NCBI GenBank assembly: GCA_038062955.1
Contig: JBBTWE010000001.1
Span: 320,038 to 384,037, forward strand
DNA: 64,000 nucleotides
Reading direction: 5' to 3'
Source: Patescibacteria group bacterium
GTDB taxonomy: Bacteria; Patescibacteriota; Minisyncoccia; Phycocordibacterales; BOKC01
Part shown: positions 20,683 through 63,961 of the stretch, in pieces
How positions within the stretch are numbered: the first letter of the stretch is position 1
Layout: each line of letters starts with the position of its first letter
The notes under the pieces: generated by a model
What the model was told of the DNA's origin: nothing
Database searches by the model: none
What the model saw: only the letters and a program-made list of their open reading frames with translations
Made by a program: the position numbers and the translations under genes

Positions 20683-20688
20683 CAAATT

Positions 20689-30486: not shown

Positions 30487-30534
30487 TTTTTTTTGAATCT
30501 ATCACTCTACCTTTTCTAGTGGTACTATAGTGTC

Positions 30535-45610: not shown

Positions 45611-45655
45611 CCGCGGGTAGCCTGCCTGCCGGCAGGGAGTTTCTCTCTCTACGAG
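45611..45655. repeat. A 45-bp element (ctccgcgggtagcctgcctgccggcagggagtttctctct), the left member of an inverted pair with 49219..49262.
   Basis: The reverse complement matches 49219..49262 except for a 4-nt indel. The core is the CTGCCGGCAG palindrome. Confidence 0.65.
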
Positions 45656-45980: not shown

Positions 45981-46535
45981 CATTTGTTCCAAAGTTGCCT
46001 TTGGCATGGACTATATCATCATCCTTCATCGGCTGTTTGCAGATGGATGGGATGTGAGGCGCTTCGACTGAATTTTTCAGGCTACTCTCTTTCGAGATAG
46101 TCTCTGAACCTTCCTGCTGATTAGCAGGCTTGGCTGCTGATTGCCCACGTGGGGTTTCCAGCAATTCACCTCATTTTTCATCCTAAATTCCTTTAGGAAG
46201 CTGCGTGATGCCGTCATGTATTTCCATGTGACAATTTGCACAAACGAGTACGCACTTCTTAATTTCCTCTTCGATTTTGGCCCAGGAACGTGTTATGCCT
46301 CCAGAAGCAAGATCGAATTTCTTTGTAGATGGATCGATATGGTGGAAACTAAGAGATCGTTGGCATTTTTTGTAACCACATATAAAACATTTACTGCCTT
46401 TCGTTGCTCTAGCCATTTCACGAAGTTTTCTTCTTCTTCGTTTTACAGCTTCTCGCATGTACTCGGCACGGTCGGCATAGGTTCTTTTTTCTTTCCTGGT
46501 ATACATTAATAAAGTATACCACAGAACCTTCTGAC
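45981..46535 (-). mobile_element. Group I intron (within the anticodon loop of the tRNA) carrying an HNH homing-endonuclease ORF.
   Basis: P7 strands GACUA / UAGUC (cagAGACTAtc ... atATAGTCc), GNRA-capped hairpins (tctcGAAAgaga, ccaaagGCAActttgg), a terminal omega-G and the HNH ORF are all present. Confidence 0.7.
46183..46506 (-). CDS. HNH homing endonuclease (intron-encoded)
   Basis: CFICGYKKC...SFHHIDP...N...CANCHMEIH is the C-x2-C/HH/N/C-x2-C-H HNH signature. Confidence 0.8.
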   Translation of the reverse strand: MYTRKEKRTYADRAEYMREAVKRRRRKLREMARATKGSKCFICGYKKCQRSLSFHHIDPSTKKFDLASGGITRSWAKIEEEIKKCVLVCANCHMEIHDGITQLPKGI

Positions 46536-46645
46536 ACAGGCGACTGCGCTACCACTGCGCCACCGCGGAATATTTGTGGAGAACGAGTTTATAATATCAA
46601 AAAAGTCTTTAAAAGCAATGTGACCATGAAATAAAATTTATCGAA

Positions 46646-49127: not shown

Positions 49128-49218
49128 GGTCACTTTCTTTTTTCTCAAGATGTCAATACTACTTTGAGAAACTTCTTTTGAAAAAATGGGAAATCTATAC
49201 TGTTCTCGTAGAGAGAAA

Positions 49219-49262
49219 CTCCCTGCCTGCCGGCAGGCAGGCTACCCGCGGAGTCTACAAAC
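49219..49262. repeat. A 45-bp element, the right member of the inverted pair with 45611..45655.
   Basis: agagaaactccctgcctgccggcaggcaggctacccgcggag. Confidence 0.65.
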
Positions 49263-50037
49263 CGCGCCTCAACTTATTCCGATAGATGATAGAGACGAGC
49301 GCGAAGCTCAAGATAAGCAGAAGAAACCACGAACCGATTTTGCTCCACGAGACAAAATGCCAATTCTCGACTTGGCTCGGATAGAGCCAGACTCGGGTGA
49401 AAGTGTCAATATTTTCTGCTACCCATACAAAAAAGGAGGTCAAAAATACCGTCACTAAAAATGGCATACTTCGTTCTTTCCTATACACCTCAAAATGCAC
49501 CTTTGTTTTAAAAAATATAATAAATACGTATAGGAACAAAAAATATCTAATATCGTAAAAGAAATGATGTGTAAAGAAATTTACATATATAAGACCTGCG
49601 AGAATCCAGATGTGATAATAGGCCGGAAATCGCTCGTATGAAAGCTTAAGAAAAATAAAGGCTCGAGAGATGTAACTCCCAATCGCCGAATATAAAAAGC
49701 CTGTAAAAAGCGGTATTGTACCGATTGCAAATATTGCGCTTCCTACGCTTGGATAAGACCATGAACCAATAGCAGGGTTAGTCTTGAACAACTCCATGCC
49801 AGTTGCGAGTAGATGAAAAATAATAATAACGAGAAATTCTCTAGGACGTTCAAATCGGAATATGAGCGCACATAATTGAAAACCCACTGCGGCGAGAAAA
49901 ATAAAATCGTACCTGCTTATAATTGGAATGGTAAAAAACTCGGTGAGTAGAAATATTAAAAGCAGAAACAGGCCAAAGAAACTTGCCCGCAGACTAGCTA
50001 TAAAGAAATACCAAAGCTCAACAAATACAATATTCAT
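49255..50037 (-). CDS. Hypothetical polytopic membrane protein (260 aa)
   Basis: It has 6-8 predicted TM helices and is Phe/Tyr-rich. Confidence 0.5.
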   Translation of the reverse strand: MNIVFVELWYFFIASLRASFFGLFLLLIFLLTEFFTIPIISRYDFIFLAAVGFQLCALIFRFERPREFLVIIIFHLLATGMELFKTNPAIGSWSYPSVGSAIFAIGTIPLFTGFLYSAIGSYISRAFIFLKLSYERFPAYYHIWILAGLIYVNFFTHHFFYDIRYFLFLYVFIIFFKTKVHFEVYRKERSMPFLVTVFLTSFFVWVAENIDTFTRVWLYPSQVENWHFVSWSKIGSWFLLLILSFALVSIIYRNKLRRGL

Positions 50038-50105
50038 TATGTGAAAACTGTAACATTTTTTTCGTTTTTAGTTTATTGTATAGAGCAAAGATTTGGTAAA
50101 ATAAT

Positions 50106-50360
50106 TTGATGATAAAAAAAGAAATCACAACCGGTGTATTGCATAACATGCCCACAGATTTACAAAAATCTCTTGCTTCCGACAGAGCGGCATTATCTAC
50201 ATGGGAGGATATTACCCCGCTTGCACGCAATGAGTGGATCTGCTGGGTTACATCCGGTAAAAAAGCAGAGACGAGGGATATTCGTATCGAGAAGGCACTC
50301 TCCAAACTTAAGAGCGGAATGCGCCGACCTTGTTGTTGGGCCGGTTGCCCTCATCGTTAA
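50106..50360 (+). CDS. YdeI/OmpD-associated family protein (moderately GC-rich)
   Basis: The ..W..A...ETRD.RI.K....L pattern is present. Length is 84 aa. Confidence 0.5.
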   Translation: MMIKKEITTGVLHNMPTDLQKSLASDRAALSTWEDITPLARNEWICWVTSGKKAETRDIRIEKALSKLKSGMRRPCCWAGCPHR

Positions 50361-50416
50361 AGTCTAAAAATCCAAACTGAAATTTTCTTTGACATAACCA
50401 TTACAATACCGTATCG

Positions 50417-50767
50417 TTGAAACTAGTTAGGTCTTTCGCAACACACAAACAAAGGAGAATGGAGATGCCTACTCCCCTGAAGCTTTTGGCGGGCAATAAG
50501 TTTTCCGGTCGCCATACTACTGTGATTCGATCCGCTGTCTCTCTGATTTCACTCATCAAAAAGTATGATGAAGTAACAAAAATCACACTGGGTACCATCC
50601 TCCCCTACCATGCGCCACAACCACAATTACGCTTCAAACCAACCCAAAGTGGTTGGGAGTTGAAAGTAATCGGATGTAATGCCAGTCAAATCTTCTTCAT
50701 TCACACCAAGAATCCAGAACTGGTGAAAAAAAGAATCGAAGAAGATTGGGAGAAACTCAATAGGTAG
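50417..50767 (+). CDS. Hypothetical protein (islet). The likely start is MEMPTPLK at 50462, which follows aaaggag.
   Basis: A strong SD, aaaggagaatggagATG, is present. Confidence 0.45.
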   Translation: MKLVRSFATHKQRRMEMPTPLKLLAGNKFSGRHTTVIRSAVSLISLIKKYDEVTKITLGTILPYHAPQPQLRFKPTQSGWELKVIGCNASQIFFIHTKNPELVKKRIEEDWEKLNR

Positions 50768-50873
50768 GAGTGTATCGAATGTGTGAGAACAAGCGCGTGC
50801 CCGACATCCGGTGCCGCGTTTTTTTATTATTTAAGAGACACTTCCACAGCGTGATATAATTTCTTTATATTTT

Positions 50874-51761
50874 ATGCAAATTGGATACATCGGTTTGGGA
50901 AAAATGGGATACAACATGGTTCTTCGACTTCATGAAAAAGGCCACGAGGTTTTGGCGTACAATCGCAGTGAGGAAGCAAGAAAAGAGATCGAAAAAGAAA
51001 TTGGAATACAAACTGTCGCTTCCCTATCAGAATTTAAAACTCTACCTGCTCCGAGAACAGTCTGGCTTATGGTTTCAAACAATGCCGTCGACCAAGTCCT
51101 AAAAGATCTTCTGCTGAATTTGGACAAAGGAGACACTGTAATTGATGGAGGAAATTCTTTTTATAAAGATTCCATTCGACGCGCAAAAGAACTTCAAAGT
51201 AAAGGTGTTCATTTTTTGGATGTTGGTGTAAGTGGAGGTCCCCACGGCGCAAGAAATGGGGCATGTATGATGATCGGCGGAGACAAAAAAGAGTTTGCGA
51301 GATTAAAAAAATTATTTGTCGATCTTACACTTCCCGACAGTTTTAAATTTTTTGGAAAAGCTGGGGCCGGGCACTTTGTAAAAATGGTTCATAACGGAAT
51401 CGAATATGGAATGATGCAAGCGATCGCCGAAGGATTTGAAGTAATGAAAAAATCGGAGTTTAGTTTGAATCTCAAGGAAGTGGCAGACTTGTACAATAAC
51501 GGAAGCGTTATTGAATCCCGCCTTGTGGGGTGGCTTGAATCTGGCTTTAAAAAATATGGAGAAAATTTGGAAGATGTTTCGGGGACAGTTGCACACACCG
51601 GCGAAGGAAAATGGACTGTAGAAGCGGCCAAAGAACTTGGAATAGAAACTCCAATCATTGAAGGCTCATATAATTTCCGCGTCAATTCAAGCAAAAAACC
51701 GTCTTTCGCTGGAAAAATCCTCTCAACACTCCGCAACCAATTCGGCGGCCATTCTGTGTAA
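50874..51761 (+). CDS. gnd: 6-phosphogluconate dehydrogenase (decarboxylating), short Gnd/YqeC-like form
   Basis: The motifs IGYIGLGKMGYNM (Rossmann) and GGNSFYKDS...VGVSGG are present. Confidence 0.85.
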   Translation: MQIGYIGLGKMGYNMVLRLHEKGHEVLAYNRSEEARKEIEKEIGIQTVASLSEFKTLPAPRTVWLMVSNNAVDQVLKDLLLNLDKGDTVIDGGNSFYKDSIRRAKELQSKGVHFLDVGVSGGPHGARNGACMMIGGDKKEFARLKKLFVDLTLPDSFKFFGKAGAGHFVKMVHNGIEYGMMQAIAEGFEVMKKSEFSLNLKEVADLYNNGSVIESRLVGWLESGFKKYGENLEDVSGTVAHTGEGKWTVEAAKELGIETPIIEGSYNFRVNSSKKPSFAGKILSTLRNQFGGHSV

Positions 51762-51764
51762 AAT
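51603..51764 (+). repeat. Direct repeat DR1, the native 3' end of gnd.
   Basis: A 162-bp segment about 93% identical to 53452..53613. Confidence 0.8.
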
Positions 51765-51859
51765 GTTTAATTATTCTAAAGCGTAATTTTTTATATAATC
51801 AGGATTGTGTTGAAATAAAAAAACCCGCGCCAACTAGAGTCGGAGCGAGTTTCATGGAT

Positions 51860-52189
51860 TCAATCACCACGACATTCTGTACAGATAAAATCTCCATCCT
51901 CGTCGGCCTGAATTCTGTGATTATAGCCTACGGTCGTGACTTCATCGTAACTGTTGTGCGTACCGTATAAGTTAAAGAACGGAGAGAGAGTACCATGAAC
52001 GCCACACAAACGACATGCGGCATGAACTTCGTCTCTCACAAAGAAGTCGCCGATAAAATCGAGAAGACACTCTCTCTTTTTATCTCGGATTATCTTGCAT
52101 TTTTCTATTGCGTCAGCTTTGCAAGAAACAATGTAAATCTCTCTTGAGATGTCAGGCTCTCCATCGGTGTCAGTCATATTTTTCACCAT
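51860..52189 (-). CDS. Hypothetical Cys-rich protein (109 aa)
   Basis: ORF track only. It lies inside the gnd-associated insertion. Confidence 0.4.
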   Translation of the reverse strand: MVKNMTDTDGEPDISREIYIVSCKADAIEKCKIIRDKKRECLLDFIGDFFVRDEVHAACRLCGVHGTLSPFFNLYGTHNSYDEVTTVGYNHRIQADEDGDFICTECRGD

Positions 52190-52274
52190 TCTCTTCTGAT
52201 TGTTGAAAAAAGAGAGCGCGCTACATTTATTGATTAAACGTAACGCGCTCGAGCACGCTAAGCTTGCTGCTTAG

Positions 52275-52619
52275 CTAGAGGGGCTTCACGAACCCGGAAT
52301 CCCTGAAGACATCCGGGAAGCGTTCGCTGAGCCGCTTGACTTCGCCGAGCCGGTGCCCGCCCTGCTCGAACATCGGGATAGTGGTCTGCCCGATGACAGG
52401 AACGTGCACCTTCTCTCCGTCACGACTGCCAGTGATGTGCGGGCGCGGATCGCGGGAGGTGTGAACGCTGTCCCCAAACAGATGTTCGAGGCCTGGCGGG
52501 ATGTAGAAATCGATTTTCATCGAATGTCCTTTAGTTGTCTCAGTTGTTGAAGAACAATGCATTAGACCATCTAATGCCCTTTTTAAGGTTACTTCAAAAA
52601 CAAAATTTCTGTCAAACAA
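52275..52619 (-). CDS. Hypothetical GC-rich protein. The likely start is MKIDFY at 52517 (aagga SD).
   Basis: The ORF is GC-rich and is followed by inverted-repeat hairpins at 52215..52275. Confidence 0.4.
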   Translation of the reverse strand: MFDRNFVFEVTLKRALDGLMHCSSTTETTKGHSMKIDFYIPPGLEHLFGDSVHTSRDPRPHITGSRDGEKVHVPVIGQTTIPMFEQGGHRLGEVKRLSERFPDVFRDSGFVKPL

Positions 52620-52722
52620 GATTACATCTTTTTGTAATAACTTTGTGTTAATAATGGAAAATGCCTTGTTTTAAAAGATATAATATGGTAAATTATGTGT
52701 AATTTAAAATTACATTTTTTAT

Positions 52723-53451
52723 ATGAAAACAGAAAAAATATTACAAACTCTTGGTCTTACAGAAAAAGAAAGTGGGGTCTATCTTTCACTTTTGGAATCA
52801 GGACCAGCTTTAATTTCTCAAATATGTCGTGACACCGGTTTTCATCGACCAACTGTGTATCAGATATCATCATCGCTTCAATCTAAAGGCCTCATTTCAA
52901 TGACAACTCTTGGCAAACAAAAACGTTTTGTTGCCGAAACGCCAGAAAAATTACAAACATTGTTTGAGATGATAAAAACAGATTTTCAGAACTTTCTGCC
53001 TGGGATCCAAGATATTTACAATAGCCAAGATAAGCGACCATCGGTTAAATTTTTTGAGGGTAAAAAAGGGGTAACATCGGTTATAGAAGATTTGCTTGTC
53101 AGTTTGAAACGCGGAGAATCTTACTGTAGAGTCGGTTCAAAAAAAGCTCAACTAGAAGTGCAAAAATATCTTCCTAAAGATTACGTGGACAAACGTGAAT
53201 CAAAACAAATCGGTAGATATGTTATTACAGATCAATTATCTGAACATCAGAAAAAACGTCCTTCACTTAATCGCTCTCATAAATTCATATCGAACAATCT
53301 TGGTTTTTCAGATTGCAATATAATAGAACTAATATACAAAAATAAAGTGGTCTTTGCTGATCTGGGTAGTGTGAACGCTGTGATAATAGAAAATGCCGAT
53401 GTGGCAGACTTTCAAAAGAAGATTTTCATGACTCTATTTAATTTGTTATAA
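52723..53451 (+). CDS. TrmB-family transcriptional regulator
   Basis: The N-terminal winged HTH is LGLTEKESGVYLSLLESGPALISQICRDTGFHRPTVYQ. Confidence 0.7.
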   Translation: MKTEKILQTLGLTEKESGVYLSLLESGPALISQICRDTGFHRPTVYQISSSLQSKGLISMTTLGKQKRFVAETPEKLQTLFEMIKTDFQNFLPGIQDIYNSQDKRPSVKFFEGKKGVTSVIEDLLVSLKRGESYCRVGSKKAQLEVQKYLPKDYVDKRESKQIGRYVITDQLSEHQKKRPSLNRSHKFISNNLGFSDCNIIELIYKNKVVFADLGSVNAVIIENADVADFQKKIFMTLFNLL

Positions 53452-53613
53452 GAAGGAAAATGGACTGTAGAAGCGGCCAAAGAACTTGGAATCGAAACGC
53501 TTATCATCGAAGGCTCATATAATTTTCGAGTCAATTCAAGCAAAAAACCGTCATTCGCTGGAAAAATCCTCTCAACACTCCGCAATCAATTCGGCGGCCA
53601 TTCTGTGTAAAAT
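53452..53613 (+). repeat. Direct repeat DR2, a duplicated gnd 3' end. It still encodes WTVEAAKELGIETLIIEGSYNFRVNSSKKPSFAGKILSTLRNQFGGHSV.
   Basis: Compare with 51603..51764. Confidence 0.8.
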
Positions 53614-54029
53614 TGACTTGTACCACAGAATATTCTAGTCTGTTAGCGAATTGCTCTTTAGAAAAAACCGAGACAAAAGGAGAATGTATGCCTCAAGTCA
53701 TCTGCCGTCACAGCATTCCACTACGAGACAGCTTGGGAATTGCCGTAACAATGATTGTCGCAGACTTCGTCAGCACAGAAAAACATCCTGTGCCCCGAGA
53801 AGAAGTCGACTGGTTGCCCCAATCAAATGAATCGGGATCAATTTGTCCTGATTTTGCTCTCGAGCTTCGTCTGGTTGGTCACTCCGATCGCAGAATGAGA
53901 CTGGATCATGCTGGGGCGTTAGAGCTCAAGCGACTTATCGCCGGCATCCCAGATTTTCCAAGCAATGTGGACAAGGACAAACCTTTCCTTTGGATCCAAT
54001 TCATCGATCCAGATGGCCCATACGTCTAG
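53613..54029 (+). CDS. Hypothetical GC-rich islet protein. The likely start is MPQVICRH at 53688 (aaaaggag SD).
   Basis: An SD is present. The terminator is ccccac..gtgggg plus a T-run at 54038..54090. Confidence 0.45.
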   Translation: MTCTTEYSSLLANCSLEKTETKGECMPQVICRHSIPLRDSLGIAVTMIVADFVSTEKHPVPREEVDWLPQSNESGSICPDFALELRLVGHSDRRMRLDHAGALELKRLIAGIPDFPSNVDKDKPFLWIQFIDPDGPYV

Positions 54030-54153
54030 CTTCATCACCCCACGATTGCACAACCCATATGGTTGGAATTCTGTGGGGTTTGTTTTTTATATAGATCCAA
54101 AATAACTCAAATTTTAATCATCAATATTAGACGCAAATTTTACTTGACTTTTT

Positions 54154-54645
54154 GTGTATAAAATTCCAAACTGGCTGGCAGAGTCAGTTCTTCGGACAGT
54201 GATGTCCAAAACCCTAGTAAGAGGAGATAGGATGGATGCTCAAGAAATGACACGTCAGATAGTAAAAGGTCAGGAAAACCTAGAACGGATGAAGCGTGAG
54301 ATCTTTATGGTAGTTGAGGTGTTGCTCCTCATCATCAAAGGTCAAAAAGGGGCAAAGAGAACGCGAAACACCCAGAAAGTTATCCGCTCTAGATCAGATC
54401 AGTGCCGTTGGGAGATCTTTTCACTTCGAGATGGATCAGTATCTTTAAGATGCTGGGTAAAAAAAGGCAACATCTCGATTAACTCGTTTAGTATGGACAC
54501 CAATGGCAATTGCGAGATCGGACTTGGCCTAATCGAAACGATACACGACAATCTGCCAATGCTCGTTGCCCTAATGATTAGGCAATTTCCGACTTTTGAG
54601 AGAGAGCTTGAGCCAATCATCAAGGCCTCTACGAAAGAGTTCTAG
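54154..54645 (+). CDS. Hypothetical GC-rich islet protein. The likely start is MDAQEM at 54233 (agaggag SD).
   Basis: An SD is present. The terminator is ccgccccgaagtc..gacttcttgggcgg plus T6 at 54650..54695. Confidence 0.45.
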   Translation: MYKIPNWLAESVLRTVMSKTLVRGDRMDAQEMTRQIVKGQENLERMKREIFMVVEVLLLIIKGQKGAKRTRNTQKVIRSRSDQCRWEIFSLRDGSVSLRCWVKKGNISINSFSMDTNGNCEIGLGLIETIHDNLPMLVALMIRQFPTFERELEPIIKASTKEF

Positions 54646-54767
54646 AGGCATCACCCGCCCCGAAGTCTCGTGACTTCTTGGGCGGTTTTTTATACAAACT
54701 TCATTCAATCAAATCTTTTTTAGTTTTTCCTATGTTAAAATTCTGAACTCGATCACAACAAAAGTTT

Positions 54768-55097
54768 ATGACCACCAAACAATCAACAATAGATTACATA
54801 TTGGATCAATTAGCTGGAGCGGGCGATGTATCAGCCCGAAAAATGTTCGGCGAATATGCCCTTTATTGTGATTCTAAAGTAGTGGCTTTGGTATGTGACG
54901 AAACATTGTATGTAAAAATCACAGAGCAAGGAAAAAATTTTGTTGGTTCATCTTTCAAAGAGGGTTACGCTTACAAAGGAGCAAAAGTATCAATGATGAT
55001 TGACGATGACAAAATAGAAGACCACGAGTGGCTCTCGGAACTTATAAATATCACAGCGGATAATCTCCCACTTCCAAAGCCCAAAAAGAAAAAGTGA
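54768..55097 (+). CDS. TfoX/Sxy N-terminal domain protein
   Basis: RKMFGEYALYCDSKVVALVCDETLYVK matches the TfoX_N pattern (MFGG.glY..G..Falv.dd.LYLK). Confidence 0.6.
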   Translation: MTTKQSTIDYILDQLAGAGDVSARKMFGEYALYCDSKVVALVCDETLYVKITEQGKNFVGSSFKEGYAYKGAKVSMMIDDDKIEDHEWLSELINITADNLPLPKPKKKK

Positions 55098-55154
55098 GAT
55101 ACAAAAAAACGCCTGGTTAGCGTTTTTTTGTTTTATCAACCTAAATTATATAAC

Positions 55155-56363
55155 TTATCTGCTTCCCCTTCCTGAATTTGAATCATCGTCGTCAGAATCA
55201 TCATCAGAGTCGCTGTCTTTATCATCGTCACTATCTTCATCTTTATCGTCATCTTCGTCCTTGTTTTCATCACCGTCTTCCGACTCTATTTTGAGAACTG
55301 TTCCAACTTGCTCCTTTGAAAGATTTGGAAACTTGGCAACAATTGCGGCAATAATTCCATCTCGAGTATTGGCAGAAGTGGAAAAGGTTGTTTTTTGATC
55401 ACCAATCTCCAATTCAACAATCGTCTTGTCTGGAAAAATTTTAGCTTCTGCTTCTGCTAGTACTTTTGAAACATCACCTATCTGTAGTTGATTACTATCA
55501 GCATCCAATTTTGTTTTGATTTCCAAAACTCCATTTTTCACTTCAACTTTGATGCGACCTTCTTCACTTCGAATTTCAATTTTTGATTTATCATCTTCAC
55601 TTTCTCCTTTTATTTCAACTTTATCGGAATCATCACTGTCACCATCTGATTTATCATCTTCAAATTTTATTTTGAACTTTTCATCACTTATCTCTATGCG
55701 GGCATTTGCAGGAAAATCTGCCACAAGAGCATTGAGCTTGGCGGTAATGTCATCAACCTGTGAGTTCTCTCCTTGTTGTTCTTTGAGTTTTGAAAGTAAA
55801 TCCAACACAGCTTCGATACCAGCGTTAATTTTTGCTTGTTCTTCTACTGAAAGATCGCGTTTTTTGCCGGAAACTGATTTGTCATCATCTCGGCCGGGTC
55901 GGTTTTCAAATTCAACATTTATAGTTTTTTCAATGAAGGGTCTTGTAAGAGATGGGTATTTAGCCATGAGAGATGTCACAACGTCATCTCTCTTTTTAGC
56001 TTCCATCGTTATTACGGTTTTCTGATCACTGTGCTCGATTTTTACAATTGTTTCATTAGTAAAGATGTCCGCTTCGATTTCACTTACGGTCGCATCTGAT
56101 ATTTCTGTTGAAGCAGGAGTGAGAGAGCTATCATCATCTGAATCACTGTCCTCCACTAAGTCTTCAATTTCTTTGACTCTTTCTTCGGCAAATTTAATGC
56201 GAAGTTCGTCCTTTTTATTATCATCGCCCGCGAATGCAATACGCGCATTTTCAACAGCTTGGTCTATTCCAAAAAGAGCGTCGCCGGGACGAGCGTTATC
56301 TGCTGTAGAAATAGTCCCTCCAACTCCTAATGCAAGAATAATTGCTATTATAATTCCAGTCAT
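55155..56363 (-). CDS. Membrane-anchored acidic repeat protein with a poly-Asp/Ser C-terminal tail and two internal repeats of about 45 aa
   Basis: An N-terminal TM segment is present. The repeats are IVKIEHSDQKTVITMEAKKRDDVVTSLMAKYPSLT and IVELEIGDQKTTFSTSANTRDGIIAAIVAKFPNLS. The tail is DDDKDEDSDDDKDSDSDDD. Confidence 0.55.
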   Translation of the reverse strand: MTGIIIAIILALGVGGTISTADNARPGDALFGIDQAVENARIAFAGDDNKKDELRIKFAEERVKEIEDLVEDSDSDDDSSLTPASTEISDATVSEIEADIFTNETIVKIEHSDQKTVITMEAKKRDDVVTSLMAKYPSLTRPFIEKTINVEFENRPGRDDDKSVSGKKRDLSVEEQAKINAGIEAVLDLLSKLKEQQGENSQVDDITAKLNALVADFPANARIEISDEKFKIKFEDDKSDGDSDDSDKVEIKGESEDDKSKIEIRSEEGRIKVEVKNGVLEIKTKLDADSNQLQIGDVSKVLAEAEAKIFPDKTIVELEIGDQKTTFSTSANTRDGIIAAIVAKFPNLSKEQVGTVLKIESEDGDENKDEDDDKDEDSDDDKDSDSDDDSDDDDSNSGRGSR

Positions 56364-56460
56364 AATTTTATTTTTTTAAATTTATAATGAATGCATTCTA
56401 AATGCACTCTAGCTTTTCATTATACTACTTTTTTTATATAAAAAACAGCCCGAGCAACAC

Positions 56461-57381
56461 TTAAGTGCTAGGGCTGGATGAAGCGAAGGAGTCTCGCCTA
56501 CTTGCTTGCATGCGTCTTTCCTTTCGAACGATTGAGGTTGGTTTCCATGGCGTACGAAGATGAATCGCACCGAAACTTACCGCCTGGGCACCCAAATCTC
56601 GAACCCGTTTCATGTCATCGAACTTCATGATGCTCGGGGCAATGACAGGGAGTAATCCTTGTTTGGCAAGAGCTTCGACGGCAGGCCAGTTGTGTTTCTG
56701 GGCAGGTTTGCCCGAGACACCACCACTTCCGTTACCAACCCGCTTTTCGAGTTTGTGGAGAGGAGTTACTTCGTGAGGAAATACTGTTTCCCACCTAACG
56801 CTGTTAAGCGCGATCGCTTCTGCGTATCTCTCGATCGCCTTTGTAATTTCAAGATAGGGTTGATCCACTGAGAGTTTGGCAAGCACAGGCAAGTGAGATT
56901 CTTCCCAGACCGCACGTACATCTTCGGCGGCAGACTGAATATCCTTCAGATGATCGCCACTGTTGGGACAAGAAAGGTTAACTTCAATCCCCACGATGTC
57001 AAATTCGGATCGTCGCAGAACCTTGGTCATCTCTTTTAGCTCTGCTCTCGTGCCAGAAATCGAGACGATGATCGGAATCTTCTTCCGATTAACTTTTGGA
57101 CCGATCTTGCGACACCACCAGTCAAATCCTGGATTGGTCAGACCAACTTTGTTCACAGCGCCACCAGGGATAAGACGAACGCAGTCCCAAGGTTTCCACA
57201 TTCGCAGGTTACCCGGCCTATGATTGAGGGTTAGGGTCTTGGTAACGACCGTGAAGAGTTCAGGTCGCAAGAGACCGAGCCACACAAGTGGCTTTTCCCA
57301 CCACCATCCCCGCCCATCGAAGCCGAGCGCGCCACTTGCCACCATGTATTCGAAAGAGTGGCCATTTGAGAGAGTGATCAT
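56461..57381 (-). CDS. Dihydroorotate dehydrogenase-like TIM-barrel protein (class-1-like, catalytic Cys retained). It is GC-rich.
   Basis: MVASGALGF, FTVVTKTLTLNHRPGN, VNKVGLTNPG, IEVNLSCPNS and GNGSGGVSGKP parallel the class-1 DHOD motifs. Confidence 0.6.
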   Translation of the reverse strand: MITLSNGHSFEYMVASGALGFDGRGWWWEKPLVWLGLLRPELFTVVTKTLTLNHRPGNLRMWKPWDCVRLIPGGAVNKVGLTNPGFDWWCRKIGPKVNRKKIPIIVSISGTRAELKEMTKVLRRSEFDIVGIEVNLSCPNSGDHLKDIQSAAEDVRAVWEESHLPVLAKLSVDQPYLEITKAIERYAEAIALNSVRWETVFPHEVTPLHKLEKRVGNGSGGVSGKPAQKHNWPAVEALAKQGLLPVIAPSIMKFDDMKRVRDLGAQAVSFGAIHLRTPWKPTSIVRKERRMQASRRDSFASSSPST

Positions 57382-57533
57382 AAGAGACTCCTTTTTGTTG
57401 GTTAGTTTAAATGAACAGTTCTGGCGAAAGATTAGCCGAAAAACACTCTGAAATCAAACCTATTTTTATCCTTGCTTAAATTACCACCAAGGAGTATAAA
57501 AAGACTGGCAACAATGCTCTTTAAAAAGGAAAC

Positions 57534-57797
57534 TTGAATATGACGGAACAAAGTCCGAGTTGGGACGACCGTACGAACATTGAGTTGGTTGAGGGTGAAA
57601 TCTTTCCCGGCTTCCCGTTTAATGAGGGTGGCCCACGCAATCTGGGAACTTCATGTGAATTGATTCTCCTCGACGGTGGCAGAGTAATTGCTCGTCATCG
57701 AGCAGGACAATGGACCACTCAAAGCGGAAGAATCGTCTCCGTAGACGTAGTTGCCGCTTGGAAGACCGTCGACACCGAACATTTCAGAGGGGCCTAA
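57534..57797 (+). CDS. Hypothetical GC-rich islet protein (87 aa)
   Basis: The promoter is TTGCTT-17-TATAAA at 57468..57496. The SD is aaaaggaaa. The terminator is gaccc..gggtc plus T8 at 57822..57880. Confidence 0.45.
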   Translation: MNMTEQSPSWDDRTNIELVEGEIFPGFPFNEGGPRNLGTSCELILLDGGRVIARHRAGQWTTQSGRIVSVDVVAAWKTVDTEHFRGA

Positions 57798-57963
57798 TCA
57801 TGTTTGTTCTTCACCCCATATCACGACCCTTAGCTTGCTCGTCGCAACTTTGGGTCTTTTTTTTGTTTACAGGTCTAATTTTTTTAGAAAAACTTCATTC
57901 TCACATACTTGAGAATGTGAGAATGATATTTAGGCAAAGATTAAATTTAATACGGAGAAAAAA

Positions 57964-58509
57964 TTAGACTTCTTTATACATCGAAACTTCGTCAATATAT
58001 TCTCCTTTGTAGAAAATAGCTTTTGGTAAAATTCCCCATTCTTTAAATCCAACTTTTTTGTACAAATTTATTGCGTTTGGATTATTAGCGAAGACTTCGA
58101 GCTTGATAATTTTAAGATTAGGAATAGATTTTTTAGCTTCGCTTATCACATTTTCTATAAATATTTTACCCACACCTTCTCCCCTCGATTCTTTTGCAAC
58201 CGAAATCCCCAGTCCACCCACATGTGAAAGGACTCTATTTTTCATATCTACAGAAGACATACCAGTGAACTTACCATTGCAGAGAGCAACCAAAGTAACT
58301 CCCATCTTTTTTGACATCACTTCTAGGCAGGATTTTACAAACTTTTCTTCATCTTCCAGTTTTAATTGTTCGCCCTGAAAAGTTATAAATGTCTGCTCTT
58401 GAGATAAAGTATTTATGTAATCCAATGCCGCTTGTGCATCATTCGCTTCAATATATCTGATTACCAAGTCATTTCCCTTTTTTGTTTTGCCTTCAAATAC
58501 GATTTTCAT
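57964..58509 (-). CDS. GNAT-family N-acetyltransferase
   Basis: The acetyl-CoA binding motif RGEGVGKIFIENVISEAKK and FANNPNAINLYKKVGF are present. Confidence 0.8.
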   Translation of the reverse strand: MKIVFEGKTKKGNDLVIRYIEANDAQAALDYINTLSQEQTFITFQGEQLKLEDEEKFVKSCLEVMSKKMGVTLVALCNGKFTGMSSVDMKNRVLSHVGGLGISVAKESRGEGVGKIFIENVISEAKKSIPNLKIIKLEVFANNPNAINLYKKVGFKEWGILPKAIFYKGEYIDEVSMYKEV

Positions 58510-58573
58510 AATTATAATCTTACCTTATCTATATATAGTATGTTAACATTGCTGTCAGATTTCCTAAACCAAA

Positions 58574-58759
58574 CGAGGAAAAAGTGAAACAAGAAAAGCC
58601 AGTGGAAAGAACTCCCGAGCAACAAGAAGCGGAAAAAGCTTTTCGCAAAGCTGGGTACTCACAGGAAGACCCGGTTTGCGATCACTCGGGGTACGAGTTC
58701 AAAAAGCACGGCCGTTGTTGTCCCACATGCTCTACGTTCATGATGAGTTTTGGCGACTA
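58574..58759 (+). CDS. Small Cys-rich (zinc-ribbon-like) GC-rich islet protein, 61 aa from a GTG start
   Basis: The SD is aggaaaaa-GTG. The Cys pattern is C..(17)..CC..C. The terminator is ccgccacgcaataagatgctggcgg plus T6 at 58773..58815. Confidence 0.4.
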
Positions 58760-58836
58760 AAACCGAACCCATCTCGCTCACCCGCCACGCAATAAGATGC
58801 TGGCGGTTTTTTATACCCAAGTAAGTTGACAGAATA

Positions 58837-59346
58837 ATGGATAAGTATTATTGTCATCTCCAGATAGTTCCCAAAAAACCCTACGTAAGGCAAGTTATGG
58901 TCGCGTCCAGAATCATCGTCACGTCAAAGTCTGGTCTGCAAGTTTTCAGTGCGATATTCCACACACCTGTTGCTCCAGAAGAATTTCATATGGATCCGAC
59001 GGAGTTCTACTTAGAGTGGGGGAAATCAATCCCAGCGATTCCTCATCACGAGATCGAGATAACAAGTCCAGAAGACAACTTCCTCCGACAACACGGACTT
59101 CATATCCATGCGTCGAGAAAGACGGGCAAACCTTTTATCTGCTATCCAAAGAGGATGGAGACAACGAGTGAGGCTCTGCGTGTTTTCCGTACGTGGTGTC
59201 TCGGGTCGGTAGCCACGATTGTGGAAGAGATCGATCTCAACACAATCCATTCGCAAGAATGTGGTGGGGATGCAGAAAAGATGGAAAGAGTGTTGCACGA
59301 ACGATACGGAATCTTCGTGGCGACTCAAGTTGTGTCAGTGCAGTAA
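58837..59346 (+). CDS. Hypothetical GC-rich islet protein. The likely start is the ATG at about 58887, since the promoter -10 overlaps the first ATG.
   Basis: The promoter is TTGACA-17-TATTGT. The terminator is gcccgg..ccgggc plus T5 at 59360..59400. Confidence 0.45.
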   Translation: MDKYYCHLQIVPKKPYVRQVMVASRIIVTSKSGLQVFSAIFHTPVAPEEFHMDPTEFYLEWGKSIPAIPHHEIEITSPEDNFLRQHGLHIHASRKTGKPFICYPKRMETTSEALRVFRTWCLGSVATIVEEIDLNTIHSQECGGDAEKMERVLHERYGIFVATQVVSVQ

Positions 59347-59463
59347 TCTAGCAGAACTTTCGCCACGAGCCCGGTTTCACTACCCGGGCTTTTTATATAA
59401 AAACTTTCCAACTCCACTATCGAAAGATATAATAGGACTTGATCAATTAATTTAATACGAACA

Positions 59464-59874
59464 ATGAGAAAAATTACTAGAGAACAAGCGGTGAATTTTA
59501 CACTTTTATTACTTCGGATTGCGGCGGCAGTTATTTTTATTCAAGCGGGAGGCCTAAAACTATTTGGTTGGTTTGGCGGAATGCCAGCTGAAGTTCCAAT
59601 GAACACCCTAATATATATCGCTGGAATTCTAGAAGTTTTCGGGGGCTTGATGATTCTTTTTGGAATCTTTACTCGATCAGTTGCCTTTATACTTTCTGGT
59701 GAAATGGCAGTCGCATATTTTATGGGTCACTTCCCTAGCGGTTTCTGGCCAATTCAGAATCACGGTGAAGCCGCATTTCTTCTCTGTTTTATCTTCCTAT
59801 TTATAGCATCTTATGGCGCTGGCAGATGGAGTTTGGATTCTTGGAAGACAAACAGAAAACTAAAAACTTTATAG
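59464..59874 (+). CDS. DoxX-family membrane protein
   Basis: Four TM helices are present. The LLLRIAAAVIFIQAGGLKLFGWFGG N-terminus matches the DoxX pattern. Confidence 0.75.
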   Translation: MRKITREQAVNFTLLLLRIAAAVIFIQAGGLKLFGWFGGMPAEVPMNTLIYIAGILEVFGGLMILFGIFTRSVAFILSGEMAVAYFMGHFPSGFWPIQNHGEAAFLLCFIFLFIASYGAGRWSLDSWKTNRKLKTL

Positions 59875-59995
59875 CCTGCAGAAATAGGAAAAACTCCGGC
59901 ATACGCTGGAGTTTTTTCTTGTTGACTTCATTAGTGCGGAGTAGTATCTTCGTATTAGAAACAGTTCCACTTCCTCAAACAAGCAGAGAAAAAAG

Positions 59996-60358
59996 ATGGC
60001 ACGAGATGTCGAGGTGTTGAGCCCCAAGGCTCTTGCGATTTTCGAGAAGCTTCAGCCGTACTTCCCTCCCGATCCTTGGAAAAACCCCCAATGGACACCA
60101 GAAGGTATCGTCACAAACAACGGCCAGTACGATTTGCGGAAAAACGCTGACCGCAAACGTCTGGAAGCATGGGAGAAGTCCATGATCGGTTATTTGGTGG
60201 AAATTCAGGCGAGCATGTACAGAGACAAACACTCTGGATCACTTGACGGTTTCACCAACGTAACGTTCCCAAGAACAATCCAACGCCATGCCGAGATACT
60301 CCTCATTGTGACAGACCTCGATTTCCAGATCGAGACCGGAGATATCGTTGGAGACTGA
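59996..60358 (+). CDS. Hypothetical GC-rich islet protein (120 aa)
   Basis: The promoter is TTGACT-17-TATCTT at 59923..59951. The terminator is acacaacacg..cgtgttgt plus T7 at 60380..60412. Confidence 0.45.
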   Translation: MARDVEVLSPKALAIFEKLQPYFPPDPWKNPQWTPEGIVTNNGQYDLRKNADRKRLEAWEKSMIGYLVEIQASMYRDKHSGSLDGFTNVTFPRTIQRHAEILLIVTDLDFQIETGDIVGD

Positions 60359-60406
60359 ACAGAGCATGATCCAACGCACACAACACGATACCCTCGTGTT
60401 GTTTTT

Positions 60407-60976
60407 TTATTTAGAATTAAATTCTTTTATCTCTTTTAAAGCCTCTGGGAGTTCGGTAAATCCATCATCTTTTGTGAAGTGTCCGGCATTATGCAAAACA
60501 ACAATTTTTGAACCTAATTCAGAAAATTTCTTTTTATTTTCTTCAAAAGCGCCATACGGATCGTTGTCTGAAATTATCAGTGTAGATTTTGGAAGCACTT
60601 TTTTGACTTTGATTAAATCTATCGAAGATTCGATCCAGGGCTTTGCTATATTTTTTGTGTCCGTGTCTTCGAGATTTTCTAGGTTAAACCAACCAGCAAC
60701 AAATATTGCCCCAGCCACAGGAATCTTGATTGTTTCCAGATAACGAAGAATTGTTTGACATCCGATACTGTGACCAATAAAAAATGTGTCAGAATCGGGC
60801 ATACCGACAACCTCCTGAAGCTTCCCTACCCACTTTTGAATTTCGGGGGCATCACTATCTGGCATTTCAGGAACCAAAACTTCGAATCCTATTTTTTCCA
60901 ACTCTAGTTTAAGCCACGGACGCCAATCGTCTTTTGATCCTCCCGCCCAACGATGAACTATAATTATTCTTTTCAT
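60407..60976 (-). CDS. Alpha/beta-hydrolase, YdeN/RBBP9-like serine hydrolase
   Basis: IVHRWAGGS, the GHSIGC nucleophile elbow (GxSxG) and the C-terminal NAGHF are present. Confidence 0.7.
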   Translation of the reverse strand: MKRIIIVHRWAGGSKDDWRPWLKLELEKIGFEVLVPEMPDSDAPEIQKWVGKLQEVVGMPDSDTFFIGHSIGCQTILRYLETIKIPVAGAIFVAGWFNLENLEDTDTKNIAKPWIESSIDLIKVKKVLPKSTLIISDNDPYGAFEENKKKFSELGSKIVVLHNAGHFTKDDGFTELPEALKEIKEFNSK

Positions 60977-61261
60977 GTTTGTTTAGCTGTATTTTACAAC
61001 TTTTGGCGTAAAAAGTCATAATTCAAGCCAACAAAGTTAGAAATTTGATCTAAATTAAAAAATCTTAAATCTTAAATCCTATATCTTAAATCTCATTTGG
61101 GGGTTGACTTTTATGTGGATATAGATTAAGCTTGTAGCACAAAAGTTAATCGTCTCAAGTAAAGTCGATTTAGAGCATTATATTTTTGTACTTATTAGGT
61201 TAAGCACAGGTTTTCCAAAAATCGCATTATATGCGACCAAGGAAGGCCTAAAAGCAATTTC

Positions 61262-62473: not shown

Positions 62474-62658
62474 TCGCCGAGAAATTTTGGAGAATTTCTT
62501 TGTTGTAACAATTTTTTTCTCCTGCACAGTATTAGTTATACAGCTTAGTACGAAAAAAATCGTTACGCCTCGAACTTCTCTCAAAATATCTCAGCTTGTA
62601 AATTCTCGAGAAAATTTTGTGTAAAAAGAAAGGGCGACCATGGCTGTTGCCTTGGTCG

Positions 62659-63255
62659 CCCGTCTACAGGTGTCGACGCCTAACCCGTCGACCCCTCGTT
62701 GTTTGTTCTCACTGATTCGTGAATCACTCTCGTGAGTCTGATGGAGATCTCCAATCCCAATCACCCGGACCGAAATGAAAATCCCACTTCTGTTCCTTCT
62801 GATTCCACCGCAGTTTTGGTAGCCGCTTACCATTCACCATCGTTGATACTTGTCCTGGGAACGCGATTGTTCCTGGTATGGACAGATCAGGCTGTTCCTC
62901 CATCAGTTTGAGCATTTCTGCAGACCCAGCCGAACGACAACGCCACAACTTCATCAGCAACCTGTACCGCCTCATCGTCATGGGGACAGGAAGGCAGAAA
63001 CAGAGGAGCGCGCCGAGCTTCGTGGGACGATAGGCCTTCTGCCGCAACACCTTGCCGAGGAGATACGCCTTGAGCACCCAAAGCACATCGAGGACGAATC
63101 CGCGCACGGCACTGACACGATCACCGAACGAAAGGTTCTTGTTCTTCACGGTCTGTTCTCCTATCGAGGTTGAATTTCTGTTTTTGTGACTTAGCGAAAT
63201 TGCTTTGCCACAGCAGGAGACGGGTCGACGGGTTGGGCGTCGACACCTGTAGACG
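62659..63255. mobile_element. MITE/IS-like GC-rich element of about 600 bp, bounded by 35-bp near-perfect terminal inverted repeats (ccgtctacaggtgtcgacgcc[t/c]aacccgtcgaccc). It contains one GTG-start ORF.
   Basis: The TIRs are at 62659..62693 and 63221..63255 (34 of 35 positions match). The same GTCGAC-N9-GTCGAC motif occurs in the modular repeat copies A and B. Hairpins flank each TIR. Confidence 0.6.
62724..63149 (-). CDS. Hypothetical protein inside the TIR-bounded element (GTG start with a taggaga SD)
   Basis: ORF track plus the SD. The protein is Arg/Trp-rich. Coding status is uncertain. Confidence 0.3.
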   Translation of the reverse strand: MKNKNLSFGDRVSAVRGFVLDVLWVLKAYLLGKVLRQKAYRPTKLGALLCFCLPVPMTMRRYRLLMKLWRCRSAGSAEMLKLMEEQPDLSIPGTIAFPGQVSTMVNGKRLPKLRWNQKEQKWDFHFGPGDWDWRSPSDSRE

Positions 63256-63466
63256 GCCCTCCTCCTGCTGTGGCAAAAACGTTGTAAATCAGTGAGTTTT
63301 TAATGAACAATTTTCTGTGTCCAGTATACACCCATTCGTGTATTTTGTCAAGCACAAATTGTATATAACAAATAGACGGCTAGGAACAAGGGTGTTTTAA
63401 TACATAGGCCGAGCCTATGTATGATGATTTTATTCTTGAATCGTGAATCATAAATCTTGAATCTGA

Positions 63467-63961
63467 CTATTGCGTTTTTCTGCAATAGTCATGCATCACA
63501 ATCCCCGCGGCGACGGCGACGTTTAGAGAGCGGACGGAGCCGAGTTGGGTGATTTCCACAGTGTGATGACATCTTTTTAGAACTTCTTCGGGTATTCCAC
63601 TAGCTTCCTGACCAAACACTAGAAGAGTTTTTTTATTTTTGTCCCATTTGAAATCCTGAAGTGGAATTGCCTCTTTATTATTTTCAAGCGCAACCGCCAC
63701 ATCATATTCAGAAAAAATCACGTCCAAATCATCAACGTATTTAATATGGCGAAAATGAGAATAGAATTCGGTACCCACAGACGCTCGCCTATCAAACTTC
63801 TTATGACCGTAGAGAATAATTTCTTTAGCGCCGAAAGCATTGGCCGATCTCACAATATTGCCCGCATTGTTGTCGTATAAAATATTAACAAGCAAGATTC
63901 CGTAATTGAGTTTCTTTTCGTTCAAATATTTAATTGTTTCTTCATCGGTTAACCATTTCAA
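63467..63961 (-). CDS. SpoU/TrmH-family (SPOUT) RNA 2'-O-methyltransferase, TrmL-sized
   Basis: LLVFGQEASGIPEEVL and SLNVAVAAGIV are the SPOUT motifs. Length is 164 aa. Confidence 0.8.
   Translation of the reverse strand: MKWLTDEETIKYLNEKKLNYGILLVNILYDNNAGNIVRSANAFGAKEIILYGHKKFDRRASVGTEFYSHFRHIKYVDDLDVIFSEYDVAVALENNKEAIPLQDFKWDKNKKTLLVFGQEASGIPEEVLKRCHHTVEITQLGSVRSLNVAVAAGIVMHDYCRKTQ

Follow-up and report, generated by a model that had tools for sequence, protein, structure and literature searches.

A flexible region of a Patescibacteria chromosome may be filled with small, autonomous expression cassettes

We analyzed 64,000 nucleotides (the window) of the chromosome, about 0.7 Mb in size, of a Patescibacteria metagenome-assembled genome (MAG) from Hainich groundwater. 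Positions 50100-60420 hold a cluster of small GC-rich open reading frames (ORFs), termed cassettes c2 to c10 here, interleaved with core genes. Each unit is predicted to combine one small ORF with a sigma-70-type -35/-10 promoter, a canonical Shine-Dalgarno (SD) sequence and an intrinsic terminator. In the reading that we favor, and to which we give about an even chance of being right, this stretch is a replacement-type flexible region of the chromosome filled with moron-like autonomous expression cassettes. The region lies between the DUF817 and gnd anchors on the left and the DoxX and Ser-hydrolase anchors on the right. Morons carry their own promoter and terminator, deviate in composition and are inserted between otherwise adjacent genes (PMC3594210).

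The 69 genes of the window, taken from a curated list, fall into two classes. The window as a whole has a GC content of 39.2% (0.392). GC content at third codon positions (GC3) is bimodal over these genes, with a main mode at 0.28-0.36 (the backbone, about 0.30) and a second at about 0.50. About 20 genes have a GC3 of at least 0.42 (range 0.42-0.77), and their products have a median length of 126 amino acids (aa), compared to 242 for the remainder. A leave-one-out codon log-likelihood ratio splits the two classes with no overlap among clear cases, and the relative synonymous codon usage (RSCU) of the pooled cassettes correlates with that of their own backbone at r=0.17. Proteins of the GC-rich class contain more W, C, H, P and R, and fewer K, I and N. 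GC-rich genes make up 11 of 17 genes inside the stretch (c1 counted), compared to 10 of 52 outside it (p=0.0015). Further GC-rich units are located outside the stretch at 17043-17477, 29652-30050 and 62724-63149.

The cassette ORFs are real genes. Public gene callers and annotation pipelines call the same proteins, most of the ORFs have homologue families, and for c4-c7 the ratio of nonsynonymous to synonymous substitution rates (dN/dS) is below 1. AlphaFold produced confident models of c8 and c9 from family alignments, with predicted local distance difference test (pLDDT) scores of 96.8 and 95.3 and predicted template modeling (pTM) scores of 0.91 and 0.86, respectively. The c8 model has no confident relative in the PDB. 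Cassette proteins found no matches in PADLOC and NCBIfam, and a Pfam scan matched only c1 (OmdA, E=2e-17) and, weakly, c2 (DUF2103).

Composition changes abruptly over a few hundred bases in the window. Such sharp switches would also be seen if GC-rich foreign fragments had been chimerically joined into an AT-rich MAG, but we consider an assembly or binning artefact extremely improbable. The identical arrangement occurs in two NCBI genomes (701,796 and 703,865 bp), in the ENA assemblies ERZ1292638 and ERZ1292635 and in Logan. Positions 40874-61761 of the window equal GCA_964363395.1 CAYIIC010000001.1:363202-384089. Exact-match look-ups of window proteins in NCBI, ENA and Logan assemblies returned only copies 99.99-100% identical as own-species matches. 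Every unit is framed by backbone sequence in one contig, and orthologous cassettes occupy the syntenic position in a second species, which comes from other samples.

The two classes differ in their expression signals as well. With an SD called at a duplex energy of -4.5 kcal/mol or lower at the annotated start, 13 of 21 GC-rich genes carry one, compared to 2 of 48 backbone genes (p=4e-7). The motif TTGAC[AT]-N16-19-TAnnn[TA] is found upstream of 8 of the 21 and 3 of the 48 (p=0.002). Terminators were called as hairpins of -10 kcal/mol or lower followed by a T-run, at most 100 nt downstream; 14 GC-rich and 7 backbone genes have one (p=3e-5). These promoters and terminators are predictions from sequence. 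A generic scan returned 18 terminator-like sites compared to 10.4 +/- 2.9 expected, and loose promoter matches were not enriched (28 compared to 24 +/- 6). GC-rich genes bear AAAGGAG(A), GAGGAGA, GGAGG or similar motifs at the correct spacing. Upstream regions of nearly all backbone genes are AT-rich and without SD, as seen in the genes for ATP synthase and two actin-like (MreB-like) proteins, in gnd and DoxX and in the cold-shock gene. Many cassette terminators end in GGCGG-T6-7-ATA(C/T), for example at 54681-54695 and 58802-58816, a pattern also present in the sister species described below. The identical 15-mer GGCGGTTTTTTATAC is common to two of them.

Because gene callers pick starts using ribosome-binding sites, an annotation-free SD test was run as well, with expectations from decoys at -7 kcal/mol. 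The backbone is at chance level in this test (6 observed, 7.4 expected), whereas the GC-rich ORFs are enriched (7 observed, 1.1 expected). In this liberal test any in-frame start counts if it lies within the first quarter to third of the ORF, and long genes swamp it with false positives; it was used solely to place the backbone at chance level. The annotated starts of backbone genes can be trusted, since their orthologues in the sister species are of the same length.

A first-pass annotation had described a cluster of GC-rich ORFs with their own expression signals. This is confirmed by the GC3 bimodality, the codon usage and the contrasts in SD, -35 box and terminator. The GC content of 50-55% that it gave was roughly right; we measured 0.43-0.61, with c3 as the extreme (GC3 0.77). 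Its ORF coordinates hold to within about 10 nt, and the starts of c7 and c8 move from 58574 to 58584 and from 58887 to 58897. One of its units, c1, is not a cassette: it is a resident backbone gene, without SD or terminator and with backbone-like conservation (dN/dS 0.15). Two units, c10 and a gene similar to that of dihydroorotate dehydrogenase (DHO_dh-like), had been overlooked. A strong SD and a terminator on each unit was too generous a description, given the 13 and 14 of 21 genes above, the lack of both at c1 and the weaker SDs of c8 and c9. Similar cassettes proposed elsewhere hold up at 400-696, 24960-25487 and 32500-32697, whereas 25657-25908 has the signals but a GC3 of only 0.35.

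Comparison with a sister species revealed non-homologous content between conserved flanks. This species, reached through its c6 homologue, is represented by contigs L084-L089 from other samples. Its backbone is 80-86% identical to ours in nucleotide and 83-100% in amino acid sequence. The order of DUF817, c1, gnd, DoxX, Ser-hydrolase, CSD, VanY, SpoU, bPH_2, TruB and HisRS is kept. The block 49242-50360, with DUF817 and c1, is 86% identical to L084 in nucleotide sequence, and gnd is 86% identical at the protein level (dN/dS 0.07). In the slot of c2, between c1 and gnd, the sister species has three unrelated genes instead (beta-lactamase-like, RibD_C and HAD). The slot of c9, between DoxX and Ser-hydrolase, is occupied there by a non-homologous 114-aa ORF with a GC content of 0.50 and the SD AAAGGGAGG. 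In both species the ORF in this slot lies between the same two conserved terminators, that of DoxX and a CACACAACACGA...TCGTGTTGTTTTT hairpin. This arrangement, in which the flanks are kept and the content between them is non-homologous, points to homologous recombination in the anchors as the means of replacement.

Other units differ by presence or order. TfoX, DUF5667, the DHO_dh-like gene, GNAT and c8 are missing from the sister locus, and c7 and c6 are directly adjacent there with no GNAT between them. Cassettes c4-c7 are present in both species in changed order, and homology extends each time from the promoter or 5' untranslated region (5'UTR) to the terminator. These bounds indicate that the units behave as promoter-to-terminator modules. 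Breakpoints between the two species coincide with intergenic or terminator boundaries. The sister's own contigs also differ slightly in content (L084 compared to L087 and L089). Synteny searches among GTDB species representatives, anchored on gnd, gave best matches only 62-63% identical and with no neighbors in common.

Outside the stretch, the VanY-SpoU gap is about 20 nt in the sister species and contains an insertion of about 970 bp here (62474-63445, minus strand). It carries a GC-rich 141-aa ORF (62724-63149) within 38-nt inverted repeats (62660-62697 and 63219-63256). Kin of this repeat (CCGTCYACAGGTGTCGAC...) are found at 8774-8806 and 13681-13713, with larger related blocks at 8735-8842, 13642-13752 and 15043-15122. 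The repeats of the insertion are possibly part of a dispersed GC-rich family resembling miniature inverted-repeat transposable elements.

A module of three genes, c10, c3 and a TrmB-family regulator, entered the locus after the species split. It is missing from the sister species at this locus, and one copy of a duplicated 162-nt stretch of the gnd 3' end lies at each of its borders. The two copies are 94% identical, with 9 differences and a start-to-start spacing of 1849 nt. The second copy runs from directly after the TrmB stop codon to 3 nt beyond the gnd stop codon. At seven of the 9 positions the change is synonymous and affects the third codon position. Polarization with L084 places about 4 synonymous changes on the working copy and 4 changes on the remnant. 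We considered an origin of the repeat from two alleles, but synonymous drift in the functional copy together with neutral decay of the remnant explains the differences equally well. The duplication is what would result if gnd recombined, by a single crossover, with a circular molecule of 1.85 kb that carried part of gnd; an element that integrates at gene 3' ends and supplies a substitute end would leave it as well. The module encodes only its three genes, with no recombinase among them. Its mosaic nature, with the AT-rich, SD-less TrmB gene beside c3 of extreme GC content, suggests that it was assembled first in another Patescibacteria genome. A palindromic element of about 80 nt (ACCCCGTAGTGAATTTTGGCAT...ATGCCAAAATCTACTACGGGGT) is located beside GC-rich ORFs at 9301-9388, 17727-17805 and 30415-30492. 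The same element lies in L084 at about 6165-6240, right after gnd, where the window has the insertion.

Homologues of the cassettes were sought by a HMMER search with the concatenated cassette proteins against 1.84 billion representatives, which gave 479 matches. Including the window's own sequences, the family of c8 is the largest (about 59), followed by c9 (about 42), c2 and c4 (about 20 each), c3 (8), c5 and c6 (6 each) and c7 (1). No homologue of c10 is among the 150 best matches listed. Relatives of c5-c7 occur only in the sister lineage. The three named relatives of c9 all belong to the Candidate Phyla Radiation (CPR): Candidatus Doudnabacteria, Vogelbacteria and Parcubacteria. Apart from those of c3, they are the only named relatives recovered for any family. 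From our own reading of gene content and upstream sequences, the contigs with c9, c8 and c4 relatives appear to be small Patescibacteria-type genomes. There, c4, c8 and c9 relatives are again single units with SD and terminator beside SD-less core genes. One c2 relative of the DUF2103 type belongs to an AT-rich genome, has native composition and lacks an SD. A metagenome scan with the c8 family found only 3 loci.

Cassette c3 is the best case for import across phyla. Its GC3 is 0.77 in a genome of 0.30. One homologue, with 80% amino acid and 75% nucleotide identity, lies on a contig of 70% GC binned as Planctomycetota, next to genes for a thiolase, an acyl-CoA ligase and a DDE transposase. A second (58%) comes from a Deltaproteobacteria MAG. 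These homologues fit a GC-rich donor outside the CPR.

If all cassettes had been acquired recently from a single donor lineage of higher GC content, for instance the bacterium that hosts an episymbiont, the alien codon usage and GC3, the canonical signals foreign to the backbone and the c3 relatives on GC-rich Planctomycetota and Deltaproteobacteria contigs would be accounted for. We regard this as improbable. The named c9 relatives are CPR only, and the surroundings of c4, c8 and c9 relatives resemble small genomes of CPR type. Cassette RSCU correlates with the Planctomycetota contig at only r=0.21, compared to r=0.54-0.62 with the genes without Pfam match of L084 and another locus, L096, and r=0.43-0.48 with the mid-GC loci L097 and L100. 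In addition, c4-c7 predate the species split, and cassette GC3 spans 0.42-0.77 with no single signature. At most, c3 fits the idea of one GC-rich donor or host.

The proposals of the first-pass annotation on origin fared unevenly. Acquisition from a GC-richer donor agrees with the alien codons, the lineage-specific insertions and replacements and the c3 homologues, but no single donor emerged, c4-c7 are old and c9 relatives are confined to the CPR. Of an episymbiont's host as donor we found no sign among the named c9 relatives, all CPR, or the CPR-like contigs of c4, c8 and c9 relatives. Its other suggestion, a pool of cassettes spread by a mechanism not visible in the sequence, is close to what the data show. 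The proposed comparison of codon signature and synteny left the idea of acquisition standing on codon signature, whereas four to five units proved to be conserved in a relative in shuffled order. The search for donor taxa that it advised led to Planctomycetota and Deltaproteobacteria contigs for c3 and to the CPR alone for named c9 relatives.

The stretch could instead be what is left of a prophage or another integrated mobile element, with the cassettes as true morons or as cargo that outlasted its core genes. The architecture matches the moron definition (PMC3594210). The 162-nt duplication of the gnd 3' end resembles the attL/attR sites of gene-end integrators, and just left of the stretch inverted repeats at 45609-45680 and 49180-49253 copy a tRNA 3' end. 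We nevertheless hold such a remnant to be quite unlikely. None of 10 cassette proteins matches a PHROG family, scans of IMG/VR with the c4, c8 and c9 families found no relatives, and integrase, capsid, terminase and replication genes are not present. Between the cassettes, moreover, lie core genes that keep their order in the sister species.

Cassettes c4-c7 allow their age and selection to be estimated. Their synonymous divergence (dS) from the sister orthologues is 1.3-1.5, compared to 0.6-1.7 for core genes, with a nearly identical cold-shock gene set aside; values above 1 are near saturation. Nonsynonymous divergence (dN) is 0.15-0.47 compared to 0.04-0.10, and dN/dS 0.11-0.33 compared to 0.02-0.13. 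The age of these cassettes is at least that of the species split. Purifying selection acts on them, and they evolve 2-5 times faster than core proteins. Conservation is stronger in their SDs, 5'UTR blocks and terminators than in the coding sequences. For c4 the orthologues share 75% amino acid identity (dN 0.15, dS 1.41), with 5'UTR block and terminator conserved. Those of c5 are only 47% identical in amino acid sequence, and the 5'UTR and terminator are nearly identical. The c6 proteins are 56% identical (dN 0.34) with promoter and UTR conserved, and the c7 proteins 72% with an identical SD region. The c5 leader (54176-54231; about 6735-6790 in L084) forms a hairpin with a compensatory pair change, GGACA/TGTCC to GGGCA/TGCCC, which suggests a regulatory or stabilizing 5'UTR structure. 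The conserved signals and this compensatory change argue that the signals are in use.

Several observations weigh against a flexible region filled from a pool of cassettes. The SD matches of c8 and c9 are only weak. No recombinase, transposase or att-type site was found in or beside 50100-60420, so the steps of transfer are ones that we infer. The AT-rich, SD-less TfoX, DUF5667, GNAT and TrmB genes also come and go here; the flux is thus wider than the GC-rich class. Taxon labels of MAG contigs may be wrong. In addition, c4-c7 have a GC3 of 0.46-0.60 in both lineages despite a dS above 1. By a rough two-state calculation that sets equilibrium GC3 at 0.3 and allows each lineage 0.7 substitutions per synonymous site, about 80% of an initial GC3 excess is expected to be lost. 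Since GC3 is still high, simple import followed by amelioration does not fit c4-c7. Their composition is either maintained by selection, or their alleles are repeatedly replaced from a pool.

The last of these observations concerns how general the link between SD and GC content is. It is absent from 17 gnd-anchored CPR loci that were chosen with cassettes disregarded (p=0.44). The same crude pipeline finds the link in the window (p=0.001) and in cassette-bearing loci (p=0.006-0.015), and a control upstream window gave no effect. The link is therefore not a universal CPR property. We also compared 8 loci with public gene calls, selected for cassette homologues, at an SD threshold of -6 kcal/mol or lower. 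Here an SD precedes 28 of 67 genes without a Pfam match and 5 of 74 with one (p=8e-7), and the GC3 of SD-led genes is 0.13 above the local core median (p=4e-6). Both results hold without the locus of the window. The dichotomy of SD and GC content is claimed for cassette-bearing regions, not for the CPR at large.

The main rival to our preferred reading is that the cassettes are a native, vertically inherited class and that selection preserves their composition, SD, 5'UTR and terminators, perhaps for SD-dependent translation of structured GC-rich mRNAs in certain conditions. The differences between species would then reflect loss, rearrangement and fast divergence rather than transfer. The orthology of c4-c7 in the sister species, their dS equal to that of the backbone and their dN/dS below 1 agree with this, as do the conserved SD, UTR and terminator, the compensatory change in the UTR hairpin, the GC3 of about 0.5 in both lineages and the same dichotomy in other cassette-bearing CPR loci. 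We judge this rival unlikely. Such a class explains the lack of amelioration and the conserved signals, but not the non-homologous ORFs in one slot between conserved terminators, the clean insertions relative to the sister species or the 80% identical c3 homologue on a non-CPR contig of 70% GC. The 162-nt duplication around c10-c3-TrmB and the patchy distribution of the families also speak against it. The two views are compatible.

In our preferred reading, the units would circulate in an accessory pool, chiefly among Patescibacteria and with occasional input from other phyla. They would enter by DNA uptake. Competence is known in some Patescibacteria, which together with the TfoX_N-domain gene in the region makes uptake plausible. 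Slots would then be replaced by homologous recombination across the conserved anchors or, alternatively, changed by Campbell-type or illegitimate joins, as may have happened at the 162-nt repeat. Complete canonical signals would let the units be expressed where translation of the resident genes begins with no SD. If morons and flexible islands are a guide, the proteins would serve strain-specific interactions, for instance contact with phages, hosts or competitors.

Beyond this locus, some Patescibacteria may run two expression regimes, an SD-less core and a pan-CPR pool of small, GC-richer accessory genes that move as whole units of promoter, SD, ORF and terminator and whose composition and SD are actively maintained. 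We offer this as a possible but doubtful extension. Active maintenance is suggested because no amelioration is seen at a dS above 1. If true, it would imply either a specialized translation mode or a continuous exchange with biased conversion that is undescribed in these organisms. Arrays of 7-nt units (AAGATTT or ATCTTAA and variants) are located in intergenic regions directly upstream of many backbone genes (Table 1). These arrays may act as a promoter-proximal or UP-like element in the expression regime of the backbone.

Patescibacteria genomes are minimal, their accessory genes are mostly unannotated and gene exchange among them is poorly known. The locus gives a sequence-level picture of accessory-gene turnover in which single, self-sufficient expression units enter fixed slots between core genes. 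According to Tsurumaki et al. (PMC9297842), about half of Parcubacteria have no detected anti-SD motif, and the split of initiation signals within one genome bears on that report. GC-rich composition that persists past one substitution per synonymous site is not explained by simple import and later amelioration. The cassette families are predicted to be well-folded proteins (pLDDT above 95 for c8 and c9) without known relatives, which makes them candidates for functions in strain-specific interactions.

Table 1. Coordinates of the anchors, cassettes, accessory genes and repeats, in window positions
Feature	Position	Strand	Description	Expression signals
DUF817 gene	49255-50037	-	left anchor; resident gene, not cassette	
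c1, OmdA/YdeI family	50109-50360	+	left anchor; Pfam OmdA, E=2e-17	
c2 cassette	50389..50826, ORF 50465-50767	+	100 aa; weak DUF2103	TTGACA-17-TATCGT 50389-50417; SD AAAGGAGA; terminator 50797-50826
gnd-like 6-phosphogluconate dehydrogenase gene	50874..51761	+	core anchor; Pfam; GC3 0.36	no SD
Direct repeat copy 1	51603..51764	+	162 nt; functional gnd 3' end	
Inserted module	51765..53451	both	c10, c3 and TrmB, bracketed by the 162-nt repeat	
c10	51860-52177	-	105 aa	terminator ~51817-51849
c3	52275-52520	-	81 aa; GC 0.61, GC3 0.77	terminator ~52214-52250
TrmB-family regulator	52723-53451	+	AT-rich	no SD
Direct repeat copy 2	53452..53613	+	162 nt; displaced non-coding gnd 3' remnant	
c4 cassette	53613..54086, ORF 53688-54029	+	113 aa	TTGACT-17-TATTCT; SD AAAGGAGA; terminator ~54036-54086
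c5 cassette	54144..54692, ORF 54232-54645	+	137 aa	TTGACT box; 5'UTR hairpin; SD GAGGAGA; terminator 54652-54692
TfoX_N-domain gene	54768-55097	+	AT-rich accessory	no SD
DUF5667 gene	55155-56363	-	AT-rich accessory	no SD
Divergent DHO_dh-like gene	56461-57381 (feature to 57400)	-	306 aa; GC 0.51	SD AAAGGAG
c6 cassette	57472..57864, ORF 57540-57797	+	85 aa	TTGCTT-17-TATAAA; SD AAAGGAA; terminator
GNAT acetyltransferase gene	57964..58509	-	AT-rich	
c7 cassette	58561..58812, ORF 58584-58760	+	58 aa; Cys-rich; GTG start	SD GAGGA; terminator ending GGCGGTTTTTTATAC
c8 cassette	58826..59395, ORF 58897-59346	+	149 aa; public call starts 58837	TTGACA-17-TATTGT 58826-58854; terminator
DoxX gene	59464..59874	+	core anchor	own conserved terminator
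c9 cassette	59922..60402, ORF 59996-60358	+	120 aa	TTGACT-17-TATCTT 59922-59950; terminator 60380-60402, shared with convergent Ser-hydrolase gene
Ser_hydrolase-family gene	60407..60976	-	right anchor; GC3 0.31	no SD
7-nt arrays	846-894, 7794-7828, 16294-16385, 23165-23201, 24519-24567, 61048-61096, 63433-63467			
~120-nt repeats	1526-1646, 11703-11823, 18053-18178, 20580-20700, 26718-26842, 8435-8496 (inverted)			

The DHO_dh-like gene of the stretch scores far under the NCBIfam cut-offs of its family. Several other features are found elsewhere in the window. A tRNA gene on the minus strand (45941-46569), missed by ARAGORN, is interrupted by a group I intron about 580 nt long. Its 5' half (TCCGCGGTGGCGCAGTGGTAGCGCAGTCGCC...) starts from 46569, followed by the intron, with an Rfam RF00028 core at 45988-46271 (78 bits), and the 3' half (...GGTCGTAGGTTCGAATCCTACCCGCGGAGCCA). 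The intron holds a 107-aa ORF (46183-46506, minus strand) with an HNH-like CANCH motif, which is probably a homing endonuclease. The inverted repeats that copy this tRNA are 72 nt long and about 90% complementary. Each includes a copy of the 3' end of the intron-bearing tRNA (CTACCCGCGGAG) and the palindrome CCTGCCTGCCGGCAGGCAGG, and the sister species has a 79% match to one of them. They flank 3.5 kb with the tRNA and intron, a GH114 gene and a GC-richer gene of 451 aa, and may be an att-like remnant of an integrated, inverted element. Two large restriction-modification genes of the Eco57I/MmeI-like N6-methyltransferase type (995 and 534 aa) are located just upstream of the tRNA/intron segment, at 40679-45257. 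Intergenic repeats of about 120 nt, which form a family with 72-93% identity, occur between backbone genes, including those for ATP synthase and actin-like (MreB-like) proteins (Table 1). Finally, about 1 kb at 8590-9600 is GC-rich (0.43-0.54) and has several terminator-like hairpins, with no convincing ORF and no Rfam match. It could represent decayed cassettes or unclassified small RNAs.

The cassettes resemble several known systems. Like integron cassettes, they are small, mostly uncharacterized single ORFs, modular in arrangement and each followed by a hairpin-forming sequence. Unlike integron cassettes, they have promoters, occupy both strands and are interleaved with core genes. No integrase or recombinase was found among the called genes of 40874-61761 or in Pfam scans, and there is no attI. 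Their hairpins are GC stems with a T-run rather than attC, for which no covariance-model search was made. The integron reading thus fails on the integrase, orientation, promoterless ORFs and attC.

The c10-c3-TrmB module resembles islands that integrate at gene 3' ends, as it is bracketed by the gnd 3'-end repeat, with one copy completing the gene and the other a displaced remnant. It differs from such islands in its small size of 1.85 kb, the lack of an integrase and a repeat that far exceeds the usual length of att cores. A single Campbell-type crossover with a circular fragment would account for it equally well.

Replacement-type flexible genomic islands or hypervariable regions are described for Prochlorococcus, Alteromonas and SAR11. 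The stretch shares with them conserved core flanks and non-homologous genes in the same slot, as between DoxX and Ser-hydrolase and between c1 and gnd. Exchange in such islands presumably proceeds by homologous recombination in the flanks. In contrast to the multi-gene surface-polysaccharide clusters of those islands, the slots here hold single genes, and the units carry complete expression signals and a distinct composition.

In translation initiation, the backbone resembles Bacteroidota and the Parcubacteria subgroup lacking the anti-SD (PMC9297842), with AT-rich upstream regions and no SD, as reported or expected there. It differs from these low-SD bacteria in harboring a minority class of SD-led, GC-richer accessory genes. 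We found no description of such a minority inside a low-SD genome in the literature searched.

The closest likeness is to phage morons, the Hendrix-type 'more DNA' units. The cassettes are likewise apparently independent transcription units of a single gene or a small set. Their base composition is off from that of the flanks (GC3 0.42-0.77 compared to about 0.30). They lie between genes that are adjacent in relatives, as at VanY/SpoU, in the c9 slot and at c8 and c2, which are absent or replaced in the sister species. Probable horizontal spread and mostly accessory or unknown functions are further points in common. Unlike in morons, the carrier is a bacterial chromosome with conserved core synteny, with no phage genes or relatives found in PHROG or, for c4, c8 and c9, in IMG/VR. 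The units also differ from their carrier in translation start, with an SD compared to none, and several have been kept for long (dS above 1). On all points but the carrier, which is not a phage, they agree with the definition of a moron.

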